Shown here: positions 8,126 to 60,043 of the stretch, piece after piece
Numbering within the stretch: the first letter of the stretch is position 1
Layout of the letters: the number at the start of each line of letters is the position of its first letter
Assembly: GCA_026387335.1 (NCBI GenBank)
Contig: JAPLLX010000004.1
Span: 255,045-319,044, forward strand
Length of the DNA: 64,000 nucleotides
Source: Candidatus Omnitrophota bacterium
GTDB lineage: Bacteria > Omnitrophota > Gorgyraeia > Gygaellales > Profunditerraquicolaceae
Reading direction: 5' to 3'
Translations under genes and position numbers: made by a program
The notes under the pieces: model-generated
Databases searched by the model: none
Told to the model about the DNA's origin: nothing
What the model saw: only the letters and a program-made list of their open reading frames with translations

Positions 8126-8202
8126 TGGTGGGCTCAAGTGGACTCGAACCACCGACCTTCTCCATGTCAAGGAGACACTCTAACCAGCTGAGCTATGAGC
8201 CC
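8126..8202 (-). tRNA. tRNA-Val (anticodon GAC), CCA encoded
   Basis: Hand-folded cloverleaf: acceptor GGGCTCA/TGAGCCC, anticodon stem TCTCC-TTGACAT-GGAGA, T-arm GGTGG-TTCGAGT-CCACT. Confidence 0.85.
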
Positions 8203-8206
8203 TCAA

Positions 8207-8290
8207 TGCCGGGAGAGGGACTTGAACCCACAAGGTCTTGCGACCGCGAGATTTTAAGTCTCGTGCGTTTGCCAATTTCGCCATCCCGGC
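8207..8290 (-). tRNA. tRNA-Leu (anticodon TAA), long variable arm, CCA not encoded
   Basis: Acceptor GCCGGGA/TCCCGGC, anticodon stem-loop CGAGA-CTTAAAA-TCTCG, variable arm GGTCGCAAGACC, T-loop TTCAAGT. One T-T mismatch in the T-stem. Confidence 0.75.
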
Positions 8291-8971: not shown

Positions 8972-8983
8972 TTTAATATTCTA

Positions 8984-9054
8984 GGCGCGGAGCGGAATCG
9001 AACCGCTGAATAACTGTTTTGCAGACAGTCGCCTTTCCTCTTGGCTACCGCGCC
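8984..9054 (-). tRNA. tRNA-Cys (anticodon GCA)
   Basis: Acceptor GGCGCGG/CCGCGCC, anticodon stem-loop ACTGT-CTGCAAA-ACAGT, T-arm GCGG-TTCGATT-CCGC; 71 nt, no CCA. Confidence 0.8.
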
Positions 9055-23872: not shown

Positions 23873-23947
23873 GACCCCGTCGTCTAGCCTGGTCTAGGAC
23901 AAGAGCTTTTCAAGCTCTCGACACGGGTTCAAATCCCGTCGGGGTCA
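23873..23947 (+). tRNA. tRNA-Glu (anticodon TTC)
   Basis: Acceptor GACCCCG/CGGGGTC, anticodon stem-loop AGAGC-TTTTCAA-GCTCT, T-arm ACGGG-TTCAAAT-CCCGT. Confidence 0.85.
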
Positions 23948-31758: not shown

Positions 31759-31830
31759 GCGCCTGTGGCCCAACGGATAGGGCGCCAGCCTCCGGAGCTG
31801 GATGTGACAGTTCAATTCTGTCCAGGCGCA
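31759..31830 (+). tRNA. tRNA-Arg (anticodon CCG)
   Basis: Acceptor GCGCCTG/CAGGCGC, anticodon stem-loop CCAGC-CTCCGGA-GCTGG, T-arm GACAG-TTCAATT-CTGTC; starts 2 nt after the EndoQ stop. Confidence 0.85.
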
Positions 31831-36547: not shown

Positions 36548-36625
36548 GGGCGGTTGGCGCAATTGGTTAGCGCGCCTGATTTACATTCAGGAGGTTTACA
36601 GGTTCAAGTCCTGTACCGCCCACCA
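36548..36625 (+). tRNA. tRNA-Val (anticodon TAC), CCA encoded
   Basis: Acceptor GGGCGGT/ACCGCCC, anticodon stem-loop CCTGA-TTTACAT-TCAGG, T-arm ACAGG-TTCAAGT-CCTGT. Confidence 0.85.
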
Positions 36626-36693: not shown

Positions 36694-36772
36694 GGGGTCG
36701 TAGCTTAGCCTGGTTTAAAGCGCCTCCCTGTCACGGAGGAGATCGCGAGTCCGAATCTCGTCGGCCCCGCCA
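36694..36772 (+). tRNA. tRNA-Asp (anticodon GTC), CCA encoded
   Basis: Acceptor GGGGTCG/CGGCCCC (one G-U pair), anticodon stem-loop CCTCC-CTGTCAC-GGAGG, T-arm GCGAG-TCCGAAT-CTCGT. Confidence 0.8.
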
Positions 36773-36814: not shown

Positions 36815-36842
36815 ACTCCGTAAGCACTTTACGGAGTTTTTT
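36815..36842 (+). terminator. intrinsic terminator after tRNA-Asp
   Basis: Hairpin ACTCCGTAA-gcactt-TTACGGAGT followed by TTTTTT. Confidence 0.6.
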
Positions 36843-36884
36843 ATTGTGGTACAATATAAACATTTAGAACTAAAAGGAGGAAAC

Positions 36885-37205
36885 ATGGCTACTATTGAAG
36901 ATTTCCGGAAATTAGAGTTAAAAATAGCTCAAATTAAAGAGGTTAACGAACATCCTAACGCGGAAAAACTTTTGGTCCTGACCGTGGATTTGGGGGATAA
37001 GACCAAGCAGGTAGTTGCCGGGATAAAAAATTTTTATACCAAAGAGACGCTTTTAGGTAAATATGTGGTGGTAGTAGATAATCTTGACCCCGCGGTTTTA
37101 AGGGGAGTAGAAAGCCAAGGGATGGTTTTGGCTGGTTCGGATGAGTCAGGTCTTACTATTATAATTCCCGAGAGGCCGTTAAAATTAGGGAGCGTAGTCA
37201 AGTGA
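36885..37205 (+). CDS. tRNA-binding domain protein (Trbp111/CsaA/EMAP-like OB-fold)
   Basis: KIAQIKEVNEHPNAEKLLVLTVDLGDKTKQVVAGIKNFY...VDNLDPAVLRGVESQGMVL is the Myf/tRNA-binding domain. Start taken at the ATG of MATIED; the ORF-track GTG start is at 36846. Confidence 0.75.
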   Translation: MATIEDFRKLELKIAQIKEVNEHPNAEKLLVLTVDLGDKTKQVVAGIKNFYTKETLLGKYVVVVDNLDPAVLRGVESQGMVLAGSDESGLTIIIPERPLKLGSVVK

Positions 37206-37708
37206 TCAAGCAATTTGTCCCGGAGGTCGCCTGCCTTAAATGCCAGGGCTGCTGCAGATTTAAGGAAATTGACTCAGTCTGGACGCCTTGCCTGTTAGAA
37301 GAAGAGGTCCAGGATCTACTGGATAAGGATATCCCCGCGGCGTATATAAATATGCAAAGAAAGATCCAGCCGGTCCCCAATCCTAAAGGAGAAGGGTTTC
37401 TCTGCGCTTTTCTAGAAAACCAGAGCAATAAATGCAAGATTTATAACCTGCGGCCTTTCGAGTGCCAGCTTTATCCTTTCCTGATTAACCTGCGGAATAA
37501 AAAAGTAGTGCTGACGGTAGATTTAAATTGTCCCTACATAAAAGAGGCTATTAATAAAAAGGAATTTAAGGAGTACGCGGAGTATTTAGCCGCTTACCTT
37601 AATTCCAAAGAGCAGTTAGAGATGTTGATGGATAACCCCCAGATTATCCAGGCCTATGAGGATGTTACGGATTTGATAGAACTTAAGTTTCCCGATGCGC
37701 CTAAATAA
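37202..37708 (+). CDS. YkgJ-family (UPF0153) Cys-cluster protein, putative Zn/Fe-S binding
   Basis: CLKCQGCCRF plus downstream CxxxxxC motifs; start overlaps the upstream stop by 4 nt; 168 aa. Confidence 0.6.
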   Translation: MIKQFVPEVACLKCQGCCRFKEIDSVWTPCLLEEEVQDLLDKDIPAAYINMQRKIQPVPNPKGEGFLCAFLENQSNKCKIYNLRPFECQLYPFLINLRNKKVVLTVDLNCPYIKEAINKKEFKEYAEYLAAYLNSKEQLEMLMDNPQIIQAYEDVTDLIELKFPDAPK

Positions 37709-38633
37709 ACTCTTCCTGCGCGATAAGAATAAATTTAGTTCTTATTTAAACCTGGAAAGACACGCGTTAGCGGTCTATGCCTTCGCCAATATTTATATCT
37801 GGAGAAGATTCTTTGATATACGCTGGGCGGAAATTGCCGGCAGTCTGTGCGTATTTTTTCAGGATAAGATAGGCTCTTTTTTATATATCCCGCCCTTAGG
37901 AAAAACCCGGGATCCGCAGGTAGTGCAGGAAAATTTCAAAATCCTGGAACGTTTGAATAAGAATCCGGAGTTTGCGCATATAGAAAATATTGAGGAGAAA
38001 GATAAAGGGTTTTACGAAGGCTTAGGGTTAGAATGCGCGTTTAAATCATATGATTATCTTTGCCGCAGAACGGAACTGGCGCAGTTACGCGGGAATAAAT
38101 TTAAATCTAAACGCTCCAGCTGCAATTTTTTTACCAAGCGCTACGATTTCAGTTACGCCAAGCTTACTTTAAAAGAGAGGGGTAGCTGTTTTAAATTATA
38201 TAACCTCTGGGCTCAACAGCGTAACTTGGGTAACCCGGATCATATTTATCAGGGTATGTTATCCGATAGCCGGGTTTCCTTAAAAGAAGCGTTGGTTAAT
38301 TACGCGGATTTAGGCTTTCAGGGTGCGGTAGTAAAAATAGATAAAGAGGTAAAGGGCTTTACTTTCGGGTTTCCTTTAAGCCCGGATACCTTTTGTATAT
38401 TATACGAGATAACCGATTTATCCGTAAAAGGCCTGGCCCAATTTATCTTCCGCTCCTTCGCCCAGGAACTTAAGAGTTACAAATATATTAATATAATGGA
38501 TGACTCTGGGCTAGAAAATTTAAAGAAAGTAAAATTATCGTATCACCCGGAGAAATTGGTTCCGGCGTATATTGCTAGAAGAAAACCAACTTCAGGGACG
38601 GTTCTCAACTCAAAGCAAAAGTGTCCCCATTAA
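37695..38633 (+). CDS. DUF2156 (MprF C-terminal-like, aminoacyl-tRNA-dependent transferase fold) stand-alone protein. The last 13 codons and the stop are supplied by a family B palindromic element.
   Basis: C-terminal NLKKVKLSYHPEKLVPAYIA resembles the MprF/LPG-synthase C-terminal motif GLxxFKxKFxPxWxPxY; 312 aa; overlaps the upstream gene by 14 nt. Confidence 0.6.
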   Translation: MRLNKLFLRDKNKFSSYLNLERHALAVYAFANIYIWRRFFDIRWAEIAGSLCVFFQDKIGSFLYIPPLGKTRDPQVVQENFKILERLNKNPEFAHIENIEEKDKGFYEGLGLECAFKSYDYLCRRTELAQLRGNKFKSKRSSCNFFTKRYDFSYAKLTLKERGSCFKLYNLWAQQRNLGNPDHIYQGMLSDSRVSLKEALVNYADLGFQGAVVKIDKEVKGFTFGFPLSPDTFCILYEITDLSVKGLAQFIFRSFAQELKSYKYINIMDDSGLENLKKVKLSYHPEKLVPAYIARRKPTSGTVLNSKQKCPH

Positions 38634-38668
38634 GGGGACACTTTAAGATTGGCTCGAGAACCGTCCCT
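38594..38668. repeat. family B palindromic element, copy 1. Nested inverted repeats: outer AGGGACGGTTCTC...GAGAACCGTCCCT, inner AAAGTGTCCCC-loop-GGGGACACTTT.
   Basis: Seen directly; the copy at 59969-60043 is its near-exact reverse complement. Confidence 0.9.
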
Positions 38669-38676
38669 AATCTGAT

Positions 38677-39522
38677 ATGAATATAGATGAAATAGAATTT
38701 GTAATTTTTGACACTGAAACCACCGGCCTTGATCCGTCTTCCGGGGATAGGATAGTGGAGTTGGCGGCTTTAAAATTTAAAGGCCTGGAAAAAATATCTG
38801 AGTTTCAGGCGTTGGTCAACCCGGGTAAGCCTGTATCCGAGGCAGCCTTTGCGGTCAATAAAATCAGCGCCGAGATGCTCAAAGACGCGCCCCAGCCCGA
38901 AACAGTAATCCCTAAATTTCTAGATTTTATTCAGGGTTCTTGCGTTTGTTCTTACAATGCCTGTTTTGACCTGGAATTTTTAAATAATGAATTAAAAGTT
39001 TTAAACCTGCCGGCGTTAAAAGATATCCTGATAATTGACGCGCTGAAGATGGCCAAGCGCGTTCTTCCGGGCTTAGAGCGTTACGCGCTCTGGTTTGTCG
39101 CGGATACCCTGGGTATAAAAATAAAGCAACAGCATCGGGCGTTCTCCGACGTAGAACTGACCTTAGCTGTCTTTAATAAATTAAAGGATATCCTTAAGAC
39201 CAAGGGCATAACAGATTTCAATAAATACCTTGGGTTATTTAGCGTTAATCCCGCGTTGCTGGAAAATATTAATAACCAAAAGATCGCCCAGATCCAGGAA
39301 GCTTTAAACTTAAGGGCGCAGATTAAAATTGAATATATTTCTGTTTCCAGCGCCCAGGTTACCCGGCGCGAGGTGGTCCCGAAAGAAATTAAACGCGAGA
39401 ACGGCAAAGACTATTTAGTGGGTTACTGCTGCCTGAAGCGCCAGGAGCGCTCGTTTCGGGTTGATAATATATTGCATATAGAGATCGTTAATGAAAACAC
39501 TGGAAATCAAGCTTCCTTTTAA
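38677..39522 (+). CDS. DnaQ-like DEDD 3'-5' exonuclease fused to a C-terminal WYL-like domain
   Basis: Exo I FVIFDTETTGL, Exo III HRAFSDVELT; C-terminal ~90 aa contain ERSFRVDNILHIEI, resembling the WYL motif. Confidence 0.7.
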   Translation: MNIDEIEFVIFDTETTGLDPSSGDRIVELAALKFKGLEKISEFQALVNPGKPVSEAAFAVNKISAEMLKDAPQPETVIPKFLDFIQGSCVCSYNACFDLEFLNNELKVLNLPALKDILIIDALKMAKRVLPGLERYALWFVADTLGIKIKQQHRAFSDVELTLAVFNKLKDILKTKGITDFNKYLGLFSVNPALLENINNQKIAQIQEALNLRAQIKIEYISVSSAQVTRREVVPKEIKRENGKDYLVGYCCLKRQERSFRVDNILHIEIVNENTGNQASF

Positions 39523-40564
39523 GCTTAAAAAATCGGTTTTGGCCTTAGGCCCGCAGACCAAGAATACGATTTGTTGGGCTAAGGCGGATAGAGCCTGGGT
39601 CAGTCCGCTACACGGAGATTTAAGTATACACAAAAGCCTATCTGATTTTGAAAGATGCGCAAAGTATTTTCTAAAAAAACGCCCTAAAATTATTGCCTGC
39701 GATTTACATCCGGAGTATCAGTCAACCCGCTACGCTTTTTCCCTACAGAATAGATACCTCATCCGGCCTATCCAACACCACCACGCCCATATCGCTTCCT
39801 GCATGGCGGAAAATGGGTTAAAGAACCAAAAGATAATCGGCGTAGCTTTTGACGGGACCGGCTTAGGCGTGGACAACACTATATGGGGAGCGGAATTTTT
39901 ACTCTGTGATTATAAAAATTTTTCCCGCGGGGCGCATTTAAAAGAAATCCCACTCGTGGGAGGAGAACGCGCCATATTAGAGCCGAGAAGGTTGGTGGCG
40001 GCCTGGCTTAATTTTGATCAGGCAATAGATAAAAAGCAGTTATTCCGGAAAATATACCTCTGCGGGATAAATTCTCCCTTAGCTAGCAGCATGGGCCGGT
40101 TATTTGATGCTGCCGGGAGCCTTATTTTAGGTAAAGAAAAAGCAAAATTTGAGGCAGAATTGGCGATTGAGCTGGAAAAACTAGCCGCCAAAAATTATCT
40201 TAAAACTGCAGGTTATAAGTTTAAAATTAGCAAATCCCCAGAGGGCTATATTTTAGACCCGTCCGGCATTTTTAAACAGATAGTCAGGGATTTAAAAGCG
40301 AAGAAACCCCGGGAGCAGATCGCCCAAAAGTTTCACGCGACAGTAGCGCAAATGATTTTAAAGACCTGTTTAATCTTAAGGCGGCAAAGTAAGATCAATA
40401 AGGTTGTTTTATCCGGAGGGGTATTCCAAAATAAACTTTTACTTAGTATCTGTTTAGACTTATTATATAAGCAAGGTTTTAAAGTTTTTACGCATCAGCA
40501 GTTGTCTTGTAATGACGCGGGCGTTTCTTTGGGACAGGCCGTTATTAGCGGCTATAGAGGTTAA
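39491..40564 (+). CDS. hypF: HypF-like carbamoyltransferase, Kae1/YgjD-like C-terminal domain only (no acylphosphatase, Zn-finger or YrdC domains)
   Basis: IQHHHAHIASCMAENG and VAFDGTGLGVDNTIWGAEFL are HypF Kae1-domain motifs; followed by hypC and hypD; only 357 aa. Confidence 0.7.
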   Translation: MKTLEIKLPFKLKKSVLALGPQTKNTICWAKADRAWVSPLHGDLSIHKSLSDFERCAKYFLKKRPKIIACDLHPEYQSTRYAFSLQNRYLIRPIQHHHAHIASCMAENGLKNQKIIGVAFDGTGLGVDNTIWGAEFLLCDYKNFSRGAHLKEIPLVGGERAILEPRRLVAAWLNFDQAIDKKQLFRKIYLCGINSPLASSMGRLFDAAGSLILGKEKAKFEAELAIELEKLAAKNYLKTAGYKFKISKSPEGYILDPSGIFKQIVRDLKAKKPREQIAQKFHATVAQMILKTCLILRRQSKINKVVLSGGVFQNKLLLSICLDLLYKQGFKVFTHQQLSCNDAGVSLGQAVISGYRG

Positions 40565-41868: not shown

Positions 41869-43839
41869 ATGCCTAAAAGCGACTATTTAGGAAAAGAAAA
41901 ACGCCGGTACGTACGTTTAGATACGGTCTTTCCGGTACAATTCTATTTGATTAGCCTTGATGGAAAAAGCACTTTATCCGCAGAGTTGCAGGGCTTTACT
42001 AACAATTTGAGTAAGGGCGGGATATGTTTGTCTGTGCATAACCTGGATTCCCAATCAGCGCAATTGCTCAAAGAACACAAGGCAAATATCTCTTTAATCA
42101 TAGATATACCTATTGCCAAAAAACCTATCCGCGCGGTAGCTTGCGCGGCCTGGTTAAAAGAAGATCTTACGAGCGGCAATAAATGTTACATCGGTCTGCA
42201 TTATGAGTTTATTGATAAGGCCGCTAATAGCAAGCTGATGCGTTATGCTTGGGGCAGGAAGTTATTTATCCCGGTTGCTTTAACGGCGATTATTTTATTA
42301 GGGTTGGTCCTGGCCTTAAACAGTTTTATAAATAATAAACTGGAAGAAGGGAATAGGGCTCTGGTCCGCAAGCTCGCCAGTGTTATCCAGGAGGCCGGTC
42401 TAGCCAAGCAAAAAATAAAGGATGTCAGCCAGGAGAAAGAAAGTTTACAGGGTCAGATCCAGGGGTTAGAGTCGCGGATTAAGGCAACCGAAGATGAGCG
42501 GGCTAAGTTTAAGGATAATACCAGCGTTGAAATCACCGAGCAATCCCGGAAGATATCGGAAAAATCCCAGAAGATAAATGAATTTAATATCTTGCTCCGG
42601 CAGTTATCTCAGGAAAAAGAGAGCCTTAAACAACAGCTGGCCTCGGTTAAGATCAAAGAGAGCGTTATATCCGAAGAGCTTTTTCTAATAGATAAAAAGA
42701 AAGCGACATTAGAAAAGGCGAATCTGGATAATATGTACCAATGGATAAAGGTGCATCAGAATCCGCGCACCGGGTTAGTCATGAGCTTTGAGGGTGACAG
42801 CGATATAAGCGAATGGGCGTTTATATATGACCAATCCCTGGCTGCGCAGGCTTTTACCAACTTCGGAGATTTTGAGCGCGCGCAAAAAATGCTGGATTTT
42901 TTTAGTAACAAGGCCAAGAGAAAAGACGGTTTATTGATGAACGCTTATTATGTTAATGACGGCACTCCCGCGGAATTTATAGTGCATAGCGGGCCCAACC
43001 TGTGGCTGGGTATTGCCATAGCCCAGTATACCCATAAGACTAAGGATAGAAAATATCTTAATCTGGCCGAAGATATCGCCGGAGGTATTATTAGCCTGCA
43101 GAACCAGGATAAAGACGGTGGCCTGCGCGGCGGCCCGAGCGTAGAGTGGTATGCTACGGAGCATAACCTGGATGCCTATGCGTTTTTTAATATGCTATAT
43201 AGCCTGACGAATAATCAAAAATATCTTGCTGCGCGCGATAAGATCCTTGGTTGGTTAGTCAAGCATACCTATGATAAAATGGATATACCGGTTAAACGCG
43301 GCAGGGGTGATTCCACTATAGCTACAGATACTTATGCCTGGTCGATTGCGGCTATAGGCCCACAGAAGCTCAAAGATTTAGGAATGAGCCCGGAGAGGAT
43401 TATGGAGTTTGCCGAAAATACCTGCGTAGCCGAGGTTGCTTATACCAAGCCCGATGGCCAGAGAGTCAGGATAAAGGGTTTTGATTTCGCGCCTCAAAAG
43501 CACGTGGCCCGCGGCGGGGTGGTTTCGTCAGAATGGACCGCGCAAATGGTCATTTCGTTTAAGATAATGGCGGATTATTACCTAAAGAAAGGAATGAGCG
43601 CTAAAGGGAATGATTATCAGCTGAAAGCGGATGAATACCTTTCTTCTTTAGGGAATATGATTATATCCAGCCCTTCTCCGTCGGGCCAGGGGGAGAGCTG
43701 CCTTCCTTACGCCAGCCAGGATTTCGTAGATACGGGGCACGGCTGGTTTACTCCCAAGGGTAAAGATACCGGTTCGGTTTCCGGGACCGCGTACACGATT
43801 TTCGCCTACTATAACTACAATCCCCTGGAATTTAAGTGA
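41869..43839 (+). CDS. PilZ-domain membrane protein with coiled coil and a C-terminal (alpha/alpha)-toroid-like domain
   Basis: N-terminal PilZ (RRYVRLDTVFPVQF ... DLSKGGICL), TM helix LFIPVALTAIILLGLVLAL, ~170 aa coiled coil, C-terminal ~330 aa domain (WAFIYDQSLAAQAF..., six-hairpin glycosidase-like); 656 aa. Confidence 0.55.
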   Translation: MPKSDYLGKEKRRYVRLDTVFPVQFYLISLDGKSTLSAELQGFTNNLSKGGICLSVHNLDSQSAQLLKEHKANISLIIDIPIAKKPIRAVACAAWLKEDLTSGNKCYIGLHYEFIDKAANSKLMRYAWGRKLFIPVALTAIILLGLVLALNSFINNKLEEGNRALVRKLASVIQEAGLAKQKIKDVSQEKESLQGQIQGLESRIKATEDERAKFKDNTSVEITEQSRKISEKSQKINEFNILLRQLSQEKESLKQQLASVKIKESVISEELFLIDKKKATLEKANLDNMYQWIKVHQNPRTGLVMSFEGDSDISEWAFIYDQSLAAQAFTNFGDFERAQKMLDFFSNKAKRKDGLLMNAYYVNDGTPAEFIVHSGPNLWLGIAIAQYTHKTKDRKYLNLAEDIAGGIISLQNQDKDGGLRGGPSVEWYATEHNLDAYAFFNMLYSLTNNQKYLAARDKILGWLVKHTYDKMDIPVKRGRGDSTIATDTYAWSIAAIGPQKLKDLGMSPERIMEFAENTCVAEVAYTKPDGQRVRIKGFDFAPQKHVARGGVVSSEWTAQMVISFKIMADYYLKKGMSAKGNDYQLKADEYLSSLGNMIISSPSPSGQGESCLPYASQDFVDTGHGWFTPKGKDTGSVSGTAYTIFAYYNYNPLEFK

Positions 43840-59962: not shown

Positions 59963-59968
59963 AATCTT

Positions 59969-60043
59969 AGGGACGGTTCTCAAGCCAATCTCAAAGTGTC
60001 CCCTAACAGGGGACACTTTTGCTTTGAGTTGAGAACCGTCCCT
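59969..60043. repeat. family B palindromic element, copy 2 (reverse orientation relative to copy 1)
   Basis: AGGGACGGTTCTCAAGCCAATCTCAAAGTGTCCCCTAACAGGGGACACTTTTGCTTTGAGTTGAGAACCGTCCCT; preceded by the tandem direct 8-mer AATCTTAGAATCTTAG. Confidence 0.9.

Follow-up and report, generated by a model that had tools for sequence, protein, structure and literature searches.

How should a gene be read that joins a proofreading-type exonuclease to a domain found mostly in helix-turn-helix (HTH) proteins? The question arises from a 64,000-nucleotide stretch of the Candidatus Omnitrophota bacterium assembly GCA_026387335.1 (contig JAPLLX010000004.1, positions 255,045 to 319,044 of the forward strand), referred to here as the window. 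A complete open reading frame (ORF) on the plus strand, 38677 to 39522, encodes a protein of 281 residues including its ATG start, with the stop codon at 39520 to 39522. This is exactly where an earlier note, written from the letters and the ORF list alone, had placed a DnaQ-like exonuclease fused to a WYL-like domain. The gene, called exo-WYL below, encodes a 3'-5' exonuclease of the DNA-proofreading type joined to a nucleic-acid-binding WYL domain, and it is an ordinary chromosomal ortholog of a large, catalogued architecture, not a rare defense gene. As for what the protein does, we favor, at a probability of roughly 0.55 and by analogy with Pif1 helicases, an active single-strand 3'-5' exonuclease in which the WYL domain would serve as an in-cis single-strand-binding module.

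Exonuclease domain, linker, and WYL domain

The exonuclease domain occupies residues 9 to 166 (38701 to 39174; all exo-WYL coordinates are on the plus strand). Here, the Pfam RNase_T profile (PF00929) is matched over its full length (1 to 164) with an E value of 3.5e-36 and 125.6 bits against a gathering score of 24. All three catalytic motifs are visible in the translated sequence: Exo I is FDTETTG (residues 11 to 17, 38707 to 38727), with catalytic D12 and E14; Exo II is SYNACFDLEFL (residues 92 to 102, 38950 to 38982), with catalytic D98; and Exo III is HRAFSDVELT (residues 153 to 162, 39133 to 39162), with H153 and D158. Because the spacing in Exo III is H-x4-D, the enzyme belongs to the DEDDh class. 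Exo I and Exo III had been recognized in the earlier note and hold up; Exo II can now be added to them. Conservation was followed in two alignments, one of 27 orthologs and the other of 94 diverse family members with a mean column identity of ∼34%. D12, E14, D98, H153, and D158 are invariant in the first, whose members also share the start position of the window gene, and are kept in 93 of the 94 sequences of the second. Retention of these residues across the family suggests that the nuclease has been maintained as an active enzyme.

Among NCBIfam models, the N-terminal domain is nearest to PolC and epsilon-type exonucleases. The only model whose cutoff it passed is TIGR00573, a domain-level model for the "epsilon subunit family" (98 bits; cutoff, 71.5). 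Equivalog cutoffs for epsilon were missed in the TIGR01406/NF004316 tests (108 versus 222.7 bits and 104.7 versus 196), as was the cutoff for PolC (144 versus 873 bits; the window protein has 281 residues and the PolC polymerase ∼1400), and that for DinG was missed by a wide margin. The PRK07883 models of NCBIfam, named "DEDD exonuclease domain-containing protein," match the exonuclease domain with an E value of 5e-38. When the domain was compared by sequence with the Protein Data Bank (PDB), the closest entries were the Thermotoga maritima PolC exonuclease (2p1j; E = 7e-26), PolC (9qpc), and the Streptococcus thermophilus DnaQ domain (8h18).

The full-length AlphaFold2 model has a predicted local distance difference test (pLDDT) score of 90.1 and a predicted template modeling (pTM) score of 0.87, and in it the exonuclease, with its alpha/beta fold, is joined through two linker helices to a barrel of five strands. 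Foldseek places the S. thermophilus DnaQ domain, the PolC and DinG exonucleases, and Escherichia coli epsilon at the top of the matches to the exonuclease domain. For DnaQ, the PolC exonuclease, and epsilon, which have the RNase H-like fold, the match probability is 1.00, the target-normalized template modeling score (TM-score) reaches 0.89, and the root mean square deviation is 1.7 to 2.1 Å. Identity in these structural alignments is 22 to 36% for DnaQ, PolC, DinG, epsilon, and ExoX and lower, at 19 to 21%, for RNase T. Judged by sequence and profile, the exonuclease domain is clearly nearer to DNA exonucleases than to RNases. A scan of the 64-kb window for a second DEDDh or WYL gene found no paralog.

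The two domains are connected by a linker (residues 176 to 202, 39202 to 39282), delimited from the AlphaFold2 model and a linker alignment; the linker helices of the model span residues 181 to 188 and 192 to 212. Throughout the family, the linker follows the pattern h-x-x-L-(F/Q/Y/H)-G. The string YLGLF at residues 184 to 188, at the position of the epsilon motif QTSMAF, was considered as a beta-clamp-binding motif and rejected: it lies in a confidently modeled helix, LQG, LYG, or LHG takes the place of its LF elsewhere in the family, and a motif scan finds almost no Q-type motifs (in none of the 27 orthologs and in 1 of the 94 family members).

The WYL domain follows at residues 203 to 270 (39283 to 39486), which match Pfam WYL (PF13280) with an E value of 1.6e-12 and 47.7 bits against a gathering score of 21.8, covering profile positions 3 to 70 of 70. 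Searched alone, the C-terminal 90 residues give an E value of 1.3e-13. The string ERSFRVDNILHIEI, which had first drawn attention as WYL-like, is located at residues 257 to 270, within this match. A PDB sequence search with the C terminus retrieved the helicases DdPif1 (8bnv; E = 2.9e-6) and SsPif1 (8bns), PafBC (6sj9; E = 3.1e-6), a BrxR-type regulator (7qfz), and CapW, so that the closest WYL sequences of known structure are those of Pif1 (8bnv) and PafBC. The C-terminal 106 residues were also modeled alone with a multi-phylum alignment (pLDDT, 84), giving a helix followed by the five strands of an Sm/SH3-like barrel. All of the top 30 PDB matches of this isolated model by Foldseek are WYL domains (among them PafBC, BrxR, CapW, DriD, and Cas13d WYL1), with query-normalized TM-scores of 0.55 to 0.66, and the matches include structures bound to single-stranded DNA (ssDNA), namely, CapW (9c5g) and DriD (7tzv and 8tp8). 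By profile, PDB sequence, and fold alike, the C terminus is a WYL domain and not a DnaQ or PolC accessory domain, the assignment that the earlier note had named as the one that would overturn its proposal. The domain matches of exo-WYL are far beyond chance. The Pfam scan found no HTH family in the window protein, whose N terminus is taken up by the exonuclease, and no WCX domain comes after the WYL domain: ∼11 poorly conserved residues of low pLDDT follow it, and most orthologs end right there.

Basic residues and a cysteine that line the ligand groove are a hallmark of WYL domains (Makarova et al. 2014, PMC4012209), and the corresponding conserved positions of exo-WYL are R231, C251, K254, R258, and R261. 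R231, C251, R258, and R261 are invariant in the 27 orthologs and present in 80, 85, 78, and 61 of the 94 diverse members, respectively; elsewhere in the domain, Y220, P235, and F260, like C251, are conserved at 90% or more. The HMMER alignment equates R231, C251, R258, and R261 with R464, C488, R495, and R498 of DdPif1, and K254 with R491. Carried over to TePif1 by a constant offset of −6 between the two helicases, the same four residues would correspond to R470, C494, R501, and R504. Mutating all four of these TePif1 residues together weakens ssDNA binding ∼15-fold; by itself, the WYL domain of TePif1 binds ssDNA and not double-stranded DNA (bioRxiv 10.1101/163188; PMC9964779).

Family spread and genomic setting

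The fusion had been described in the earlier note as uncommon. It is indeed a minority form among WYL proteins, >90% of which carry an HTH in one survey (Müller et al. 2019, PMC6789036), yet the family is large and conserved: in a scan of one genome per GTDB species, at least 209 of these representatives encode an exo-WYL ortholog. The combination of WYL with a "3'->5' exoRNase" was already included among enzymatic WYL fusions in 2014 (Makarova et al. 2014, PMC4012209). Given a large, conserved, multi-phylum family and this previous listing, the fusion is neither rare nor new. Close to the window protein, >120 cluster representatives with 62 to 91% identity share the RNase_T and WYL architecture, and those that are named all come from metagenome-assembled genomes (MAGs) of Candidatus Omnitrophota. 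A HMMER search of cluster representatives at 50% identity extended the family to proteins of 28% identity, with ∼100 full-length sequences (∼255 to 300 residues) in the top 150. Pfam detects RNase_T in all of the 94 diverse full-length members and WYL in 87. When the search was seeded with P0172, from the largest distant clade (Chloroflexota-type), it returned 1573 clusters at an E value of ≤1e-20; among the matches listed, all have the same architecture, and the named members are from Anaerolineae, Chloroflexi, and Thermodesulfobacteriota. The ∼275-residue architecture therefore also occurs in Chloroflexota and Thermodesulfobacteriota. A profile search with the alignment of 94 members gave matches dominated by Omnitrophota orthologs. 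Database names of the orthologs are "exonuclease domain-containing protein" and "WYL domain-containing protein." One variant of 457 residues, P0402 (9 member sequences), carries an additional PTS_EIIA_2 domain (PF00359), possibly a regulatory extension.

Loci were compared for the best 80 of the 209 GTDB species-representative stretches; these 80 belong to Omnitrophota or to MAGs titled Planctomycetales or Patescibacteria that have the same synteny. Fourteen of the loci (L015, L019, L020, L029, L031, L032, L034, L036, L037, L052, L057, L062, L069, and L075) are from MAGs titled in this way, with exo-WYL orthologs at 57 to 66% identity. The 13 of them that were checked (the list lacks L069) keep the Omnitrophota-type upstream block or the PilZ gene order, which suggests that the record titles are taxonomically imprecise.

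The setting of defense and ligand sensing that the earlier note implied did not survive inspection of these loci. No defense, cas, cyclic oligonucleotide-based antiphage signaling system (CBASS), or bacteriophage exclusion (BREX) genes were present in any of ∼90 loci examined. The neighbors in the window are pyr, tRNA_bind, DUF2156, hyp, PilZ, endoIII, and M20 genes, and members from other clades adjoin unrelated housekeeping genes (obg/proB, pabB, rpe/fmt/def, nitroreductase, acyltransferase, and hemA/hemC with folE/PTPS). PADLOC assigned only generic, domain-level matches to exo-WYL (a Cas-associated DEDDh model, WYL, and PDC-S48), returned nothing for the upstream partners, and gave the PilZ-like protein only weak LmuB/JetC matches (E ≥ 1.5e-4) over a coiled-coil segment. 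In PHROGs and phage genomes, the exonuclease domain was matched and the WYL fusion never was. The G+C content of exo-WYL is the same as that of its flanks. The genomic context is housekeeping, not defense, and in Omnitrophota exo-WYL is a chromosomal housekeeping gene passed on by vertical descent.

Directly upstream lies a block of three genes in the same orientation (36846 to 38633, plus strand), which encode a stand-alone, Trbp111/CsaA-like tRNA_bind protein (PF01588; 36846 to 37205; Pfam E = 8e-30), a CxxCxxCC (YkgJ-type) protein (37202 to 37708), and a stand-alone LPG_synthase_C/DUF2156-like protein (37695 to 38633), the last two likewise assigned by Pfam. Consecutive genes of the block overlap by 4 and 14 nucleotides. 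As compared by tblastn with the 80 orthologous loci, the tRNA_bind gene is found upstream of exo-WYL in 72, the CxxCxxCC gene in 75, and the DUF2156-like gene in 78, and the last ends within ∼11 nucleotides of the exo-WYL start in ∼50 of the 80. The block is still present in L083, where exo-WYL is only 35% identical and the outer flanks are different, while L081 (32% identity) retains tRNA_bind alone. Farther upstream, a pair of tRNA genes, tRNA-Val(TAC) at 36548 to 36625 and tRNA-Asp(GTC) at 36694 to 36772, is conserved in 28 of 42 loci checked; downstream, the 80-locus comparison shows conserved PilZ-like, endoIII-like, and M20 peptidase genes. With the tRNA pair conserved on one side and the PilZ, endoIII, and M20 genes on the other, the region as a whole represents an inherited synteny backbone.

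Proposed function and rival explanations

We favor a single-strand-binding role for the WYL domain because the catalytic domain groups with DNA exonucleases in both sequence and structure, because ssDNA is bound by the closest WYL relatives and by the majority of WYL domains whose ligands are known, and because the residues that contact ssDNA are conserved. From the comparison with Pif1, we infer ssDNA as the ligand and a tethering mechanism with the following geometry. The basic groove (R231, C251, K254, R258, and R261) would grip a single strand toward its 5' side, and the 3' end of that strand would enter the exonuclease site. Tethered in this way, single-stranded or 3'-tailed substrates would be bound with high affinity, and the enzyme would probably be processive or selective on them; DNA would be the favored substrate, and RNA a possible one. 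The most plausible cellular roles are the processing of DNA ends, DNA repair, and support of replication, as opposed to anti-phage defense or transcription control.

The closest parallel is found in the WYL-Pif1 helicases (TePif1, DdPif1 [8bnv], and SsPif1 [8bns]), in which, as in exo-WYL, a nucleic acid enzyme carries one C-terminal WYL domain without HTH or WCX. These helicases also provide the nearest PDB WYL domain (E = 2.9e-6), and the four residues used for ssDNA binding by TePif1 are conserved between the two. The catalytic modules differ, however: that of exo-WYL is a DEDDh 3'-5' exonuclease, whereas that of Pif1 is a superfamily 1B 5'-3' helicase, and the polarity with which the strand is handled relative to the WYL domain must therefore differ as well. 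DnaQ, epsilon, and PolC exonucleases (2p1j, 9qpc, 1j53, and 8h18) share with exo-WYL the DEDDh fold and all catalytic residues, at 26 to 36% identity and target-normalized TM-scores of 0.75 to 0.89, but exo-WYL stands outside any polymerase, lacks the alpha-binding tail and clamp motif of epsilon, and fails the equivalog cutoffs. Stand-alone DnaQ-like exonucleases with a C-terminal accessory domain are known from mycobacteria, as noncanonical DnaQ (exonuclease plus BRCT) and Rv2191-type proteins (exonuclease plus GIY-YIG) (PMC11348249); in exo-WYL, the accessory domain is WYL instead of BRCT or GIY-YIG, and there is no Q[Y/L]ALF clamp motif. The WYL regulators PafBC, DriD, CapW, and BrxR have the same WYL fold, and WYL regulators bind ssDNA as a signal (PDB entries 9c5g, 7tzv, and 8tp8; PMC11804915). 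Unlike them, exo-WYL is without HTH and WCX, its output is an enzyme and not transcription, and it adjoins no regulated defense or damage operon. Finally, the fusion listed by Makarova et al. (PMC4012209) has the same domain combination; that survey was oriented toward defense and only listed it, whereas the members described here occur in housekeeping contexts.

If the tethering model is true, exo-WYL would be the second case, after Pif1, of a WYL domain that acts as the substrate-binding accessory of an enzyme and not as a transcriptional sensor. It would also show a proofreading-type exonuclease gaining single-strand specificity without a polymerase partner. Since the family is large and reaches across several phyla whose members are mostly uncultured, the biochemical study of a single protein would sharpen thousands of vague database names, among them "exonuclease domain-containing protein" and "DNA polymerase III epsilon subunit."

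Several points weigh against tethering to ssDNA. A conserved basic groove would also suit RNA or a nucleotide ligand; Cas13d WYL1 is reported to bind RNA and one WYL regulator to bind cyclic di-GMP. An Rv2179c-like exoribonuclease profile is matched by 23 of the 94 family members, the Omnitrophota gene sits in a conserved block with tRNA-related genes, and our search of the literature found no experimental study of the exo-WYL family.

Some of these points lead to an RNA or tRNA exoribonuclease that would work with the cotranscribed tRNA_bind and DUF2156 proteins, its WYL domain binding RNA and its DEDDh domain trimming 3' ends as RNase T does. The genomic evidence fits this, since the upstream block accompanies exo-WYL in 72 to 78 of 80 loci, with the preceding gene ending within ∼11 nucleotides in ∼50, persists at 35% identity in L083 amid different outer flanks and as tRNA_bind alone in L081 (32%), and includes a protein with a tRNA_bind match (E = 8e-30). 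RNase T and ERI1 are among the structural neighbors by Foldseek, Makarova et al. termed the fused domain an "exoRNase" (PMC4012209), and the Rv2179c-like matches in 23 of 94 members point the same way. The block, however, is embedded in the wider inherited synteny backbone, so that the adjacency may be purely historical; members outside the clade lack tRNA_bind and have unrelated housekeeping neighbors; and the exonuclease domain is nearer to the DNA enzymes, as described above. We consider such a function improbable. Still more doubtful is a specific version for Omnitrophota, in which the four genes (tRNA-binding, metal-binding CxxCxxCC, DUF2156, and DEDDh-WYL) would form a module that acts on the 3' end of tRNA or another RNA, with WYL as the RNA-binding part, in an undescribed tRNA-dependent pathway and not in any DNA function; we regard it as very unlikely.

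The WYL domain could instead be an allosteric sensor that switches the exonuclease on recognition of a small nucleotide, an oligonucleotide, or a DNA damage signal, which would make the protein a defense or damage effector. WYL domains do act as sensors in PafBC, DriD, CapW, and BrxR, one WYL regulator is reported to bind cyclic di-GMP, ligand sensing has been proposed for WYL-enzyme fusions (Makarova et al. 2014, PMC4012209), and the Cas-associated DEDDh and WYL models of PADLOC match the two domains. Set against this are the lack of defense, cas, CBASS, and BREX genes in the ∼90 loci and of PADLOC assignments for the neighbors, as well as the character of exo-WYL as a conserved ortholog of native composition in a stable synteny backbone. 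Moreover, WYL proteins that act as sensors normally possess HTH and WCX, both absent here, and the closest WYL sequence is of the substrate-binding Pif1 type. A ligand-gated nuclease thus appears unlikely, although, if the signal were ssDNA, gating would be hard to separate from substrate tethering. Lastly, exo-WYL might be a replicative or auxiliary proofreader, the Omnitrophota equivalent of polymerase III epsilon or of the mycobacterial noncanonical DnaQ, with WYL in place of the usual recruitment domain. Its best profile and structure matches are the PolC exonuclease and epsilon, it passes the TIGR00573 cutoff, it is a conserved ortholog across the phylum, and a second proofreader built from an exonuclease and an accessory domain has a precedent (PMC11348249). 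Every epsilon equivalog cutoff failed, though (e.g., 108 versus 222.7 bits), and there is no C-terminal alpha-binding segment because the WYL domain occupies the C terminus. With the Q-type clamp motif found in 0 of 27 orthologs and 1 of 94 members, and with the YLGLF-like string being a structured linker whose LF is not conserved, we consider a proofreading role decidedly unlikely.

Flanking genes and the intergenic repeat

The end of exo-WYL overlaps the start of a short hypF gene by 32 nucleotides (39491 to 39522, plus strand), as the earlier note had read from the ORF coordinates. This adjacency and overlap are specific to a sub-lineage: the short hypF directly follows exo-WYL in only ∼20 of the 80 loci, is separated from it by ∼2.1 kb with pabB- and pabC-like genes in ∼30, and is missing together with the other hyp genes in ∼27. 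Translational or functional coupling with hypF through the overlap was accordingly rejected as a general feature, as the hyp genes are absent or separated by pabB/pabC in most loci. The short hypF itself (39491 to 40564; also 6660 to 7739 in L012 and 6816 to 7937 in L019) encodes 357 to 373 residues that comprise solely the Kae1-like HypF_C and HypF_C_2 domains, without the acylphosphatase, zinc-finger, and YrdC-like domains of full-length HypF (∼750 residues). Several Omnitrophota keep this form next to hypC and hypD, which marks it as a feature of the lineage and not a local truncation. Also downstream of exo-WYL, and adjoining it directly where the hyp genes are absent, is the PilZ-like gene, followed by genes for an HhH-GPD glycosylase and the M20 peptidase. 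The PilZ-like gene (41869 to 43839) encodes a 656-residue protein with a weak N-terminal PilZ match, a coiled coil, and a C-terminal part with weak similarity to glycosyl hydrolase 76.

Between the DUF2156-like gene and exo-WYL lies a nested palindromic, dispersed repeat of 76 bp (38594 to 38669; no strand assigned), recognized from its RNA fold and a second copy. Its outer 12-bp arms, GGGACGGTTCTC and GAGAACCGTCCC, enclose an inner 11-bp hairpin, and the RNA fold has an energy of −46.6 kcal/mol (z = −7.8). The repeat provides the last ∼13 codons and the stop codon of the DUF2156-like gene and ends 8 nucleotides before the exo-WYL ATG. The second copy (59968 to 60043), 21 kb away, is 93% identical and inverted relative to the first, and it too occupies a short intergenic gap. 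Among relatives the repeat is sporadic, with a copy in L041 (2009 to 2085) and a partial copy in L021 (5947 to 5981), and other inserts with strong folds occupy the junction of the DUF2156-like and exo-WYL genes in about a dozen orthologous loci. The element looks like a repetitive extragenic palindrome (REP) or miniature inverted-repeat transposable element (MITE) and is probably not part of exo-WYL function. A role of the hairpin as a dedicated regulator or terminator upstream of the start was rejected on the basis of its dispersed nature, its second copy, and its sporadic presence in relatives.

At the head of the upstream block, a terminator-like hairpin with a T-run (36815 to 36837) overlaps a promoter-like site (36828 to 36855; TTTACG-16-TACAAT with an upstream TG) before tRNA_bind, which suggests that the transcription unit of exo-WYL starts there. 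For tRNA_bind itself, the ATG at 36885 (MATIEDF...) is a better candidate start than the called GTG at 36846, which probably lies too far upstream. For the DUF2156-like protein, the only PDB relative is the uncharacterized 2hqy (E = 4.6e-27). This aminoacyl-tRNA-transferase-like protein and the tRNA-binding protein may form an uncharacterized tRNA-dependent pathway of their own. Elsewhere in the window and unrelated to exo-WYL, Rfam identifies a 6S RNA and five further tRNAs (1979 to 2111, 8129 to 8290, and 8983 to 9054 on the minus strand; 23873 to 23947 and 31759 to 31830 on the plus strand).

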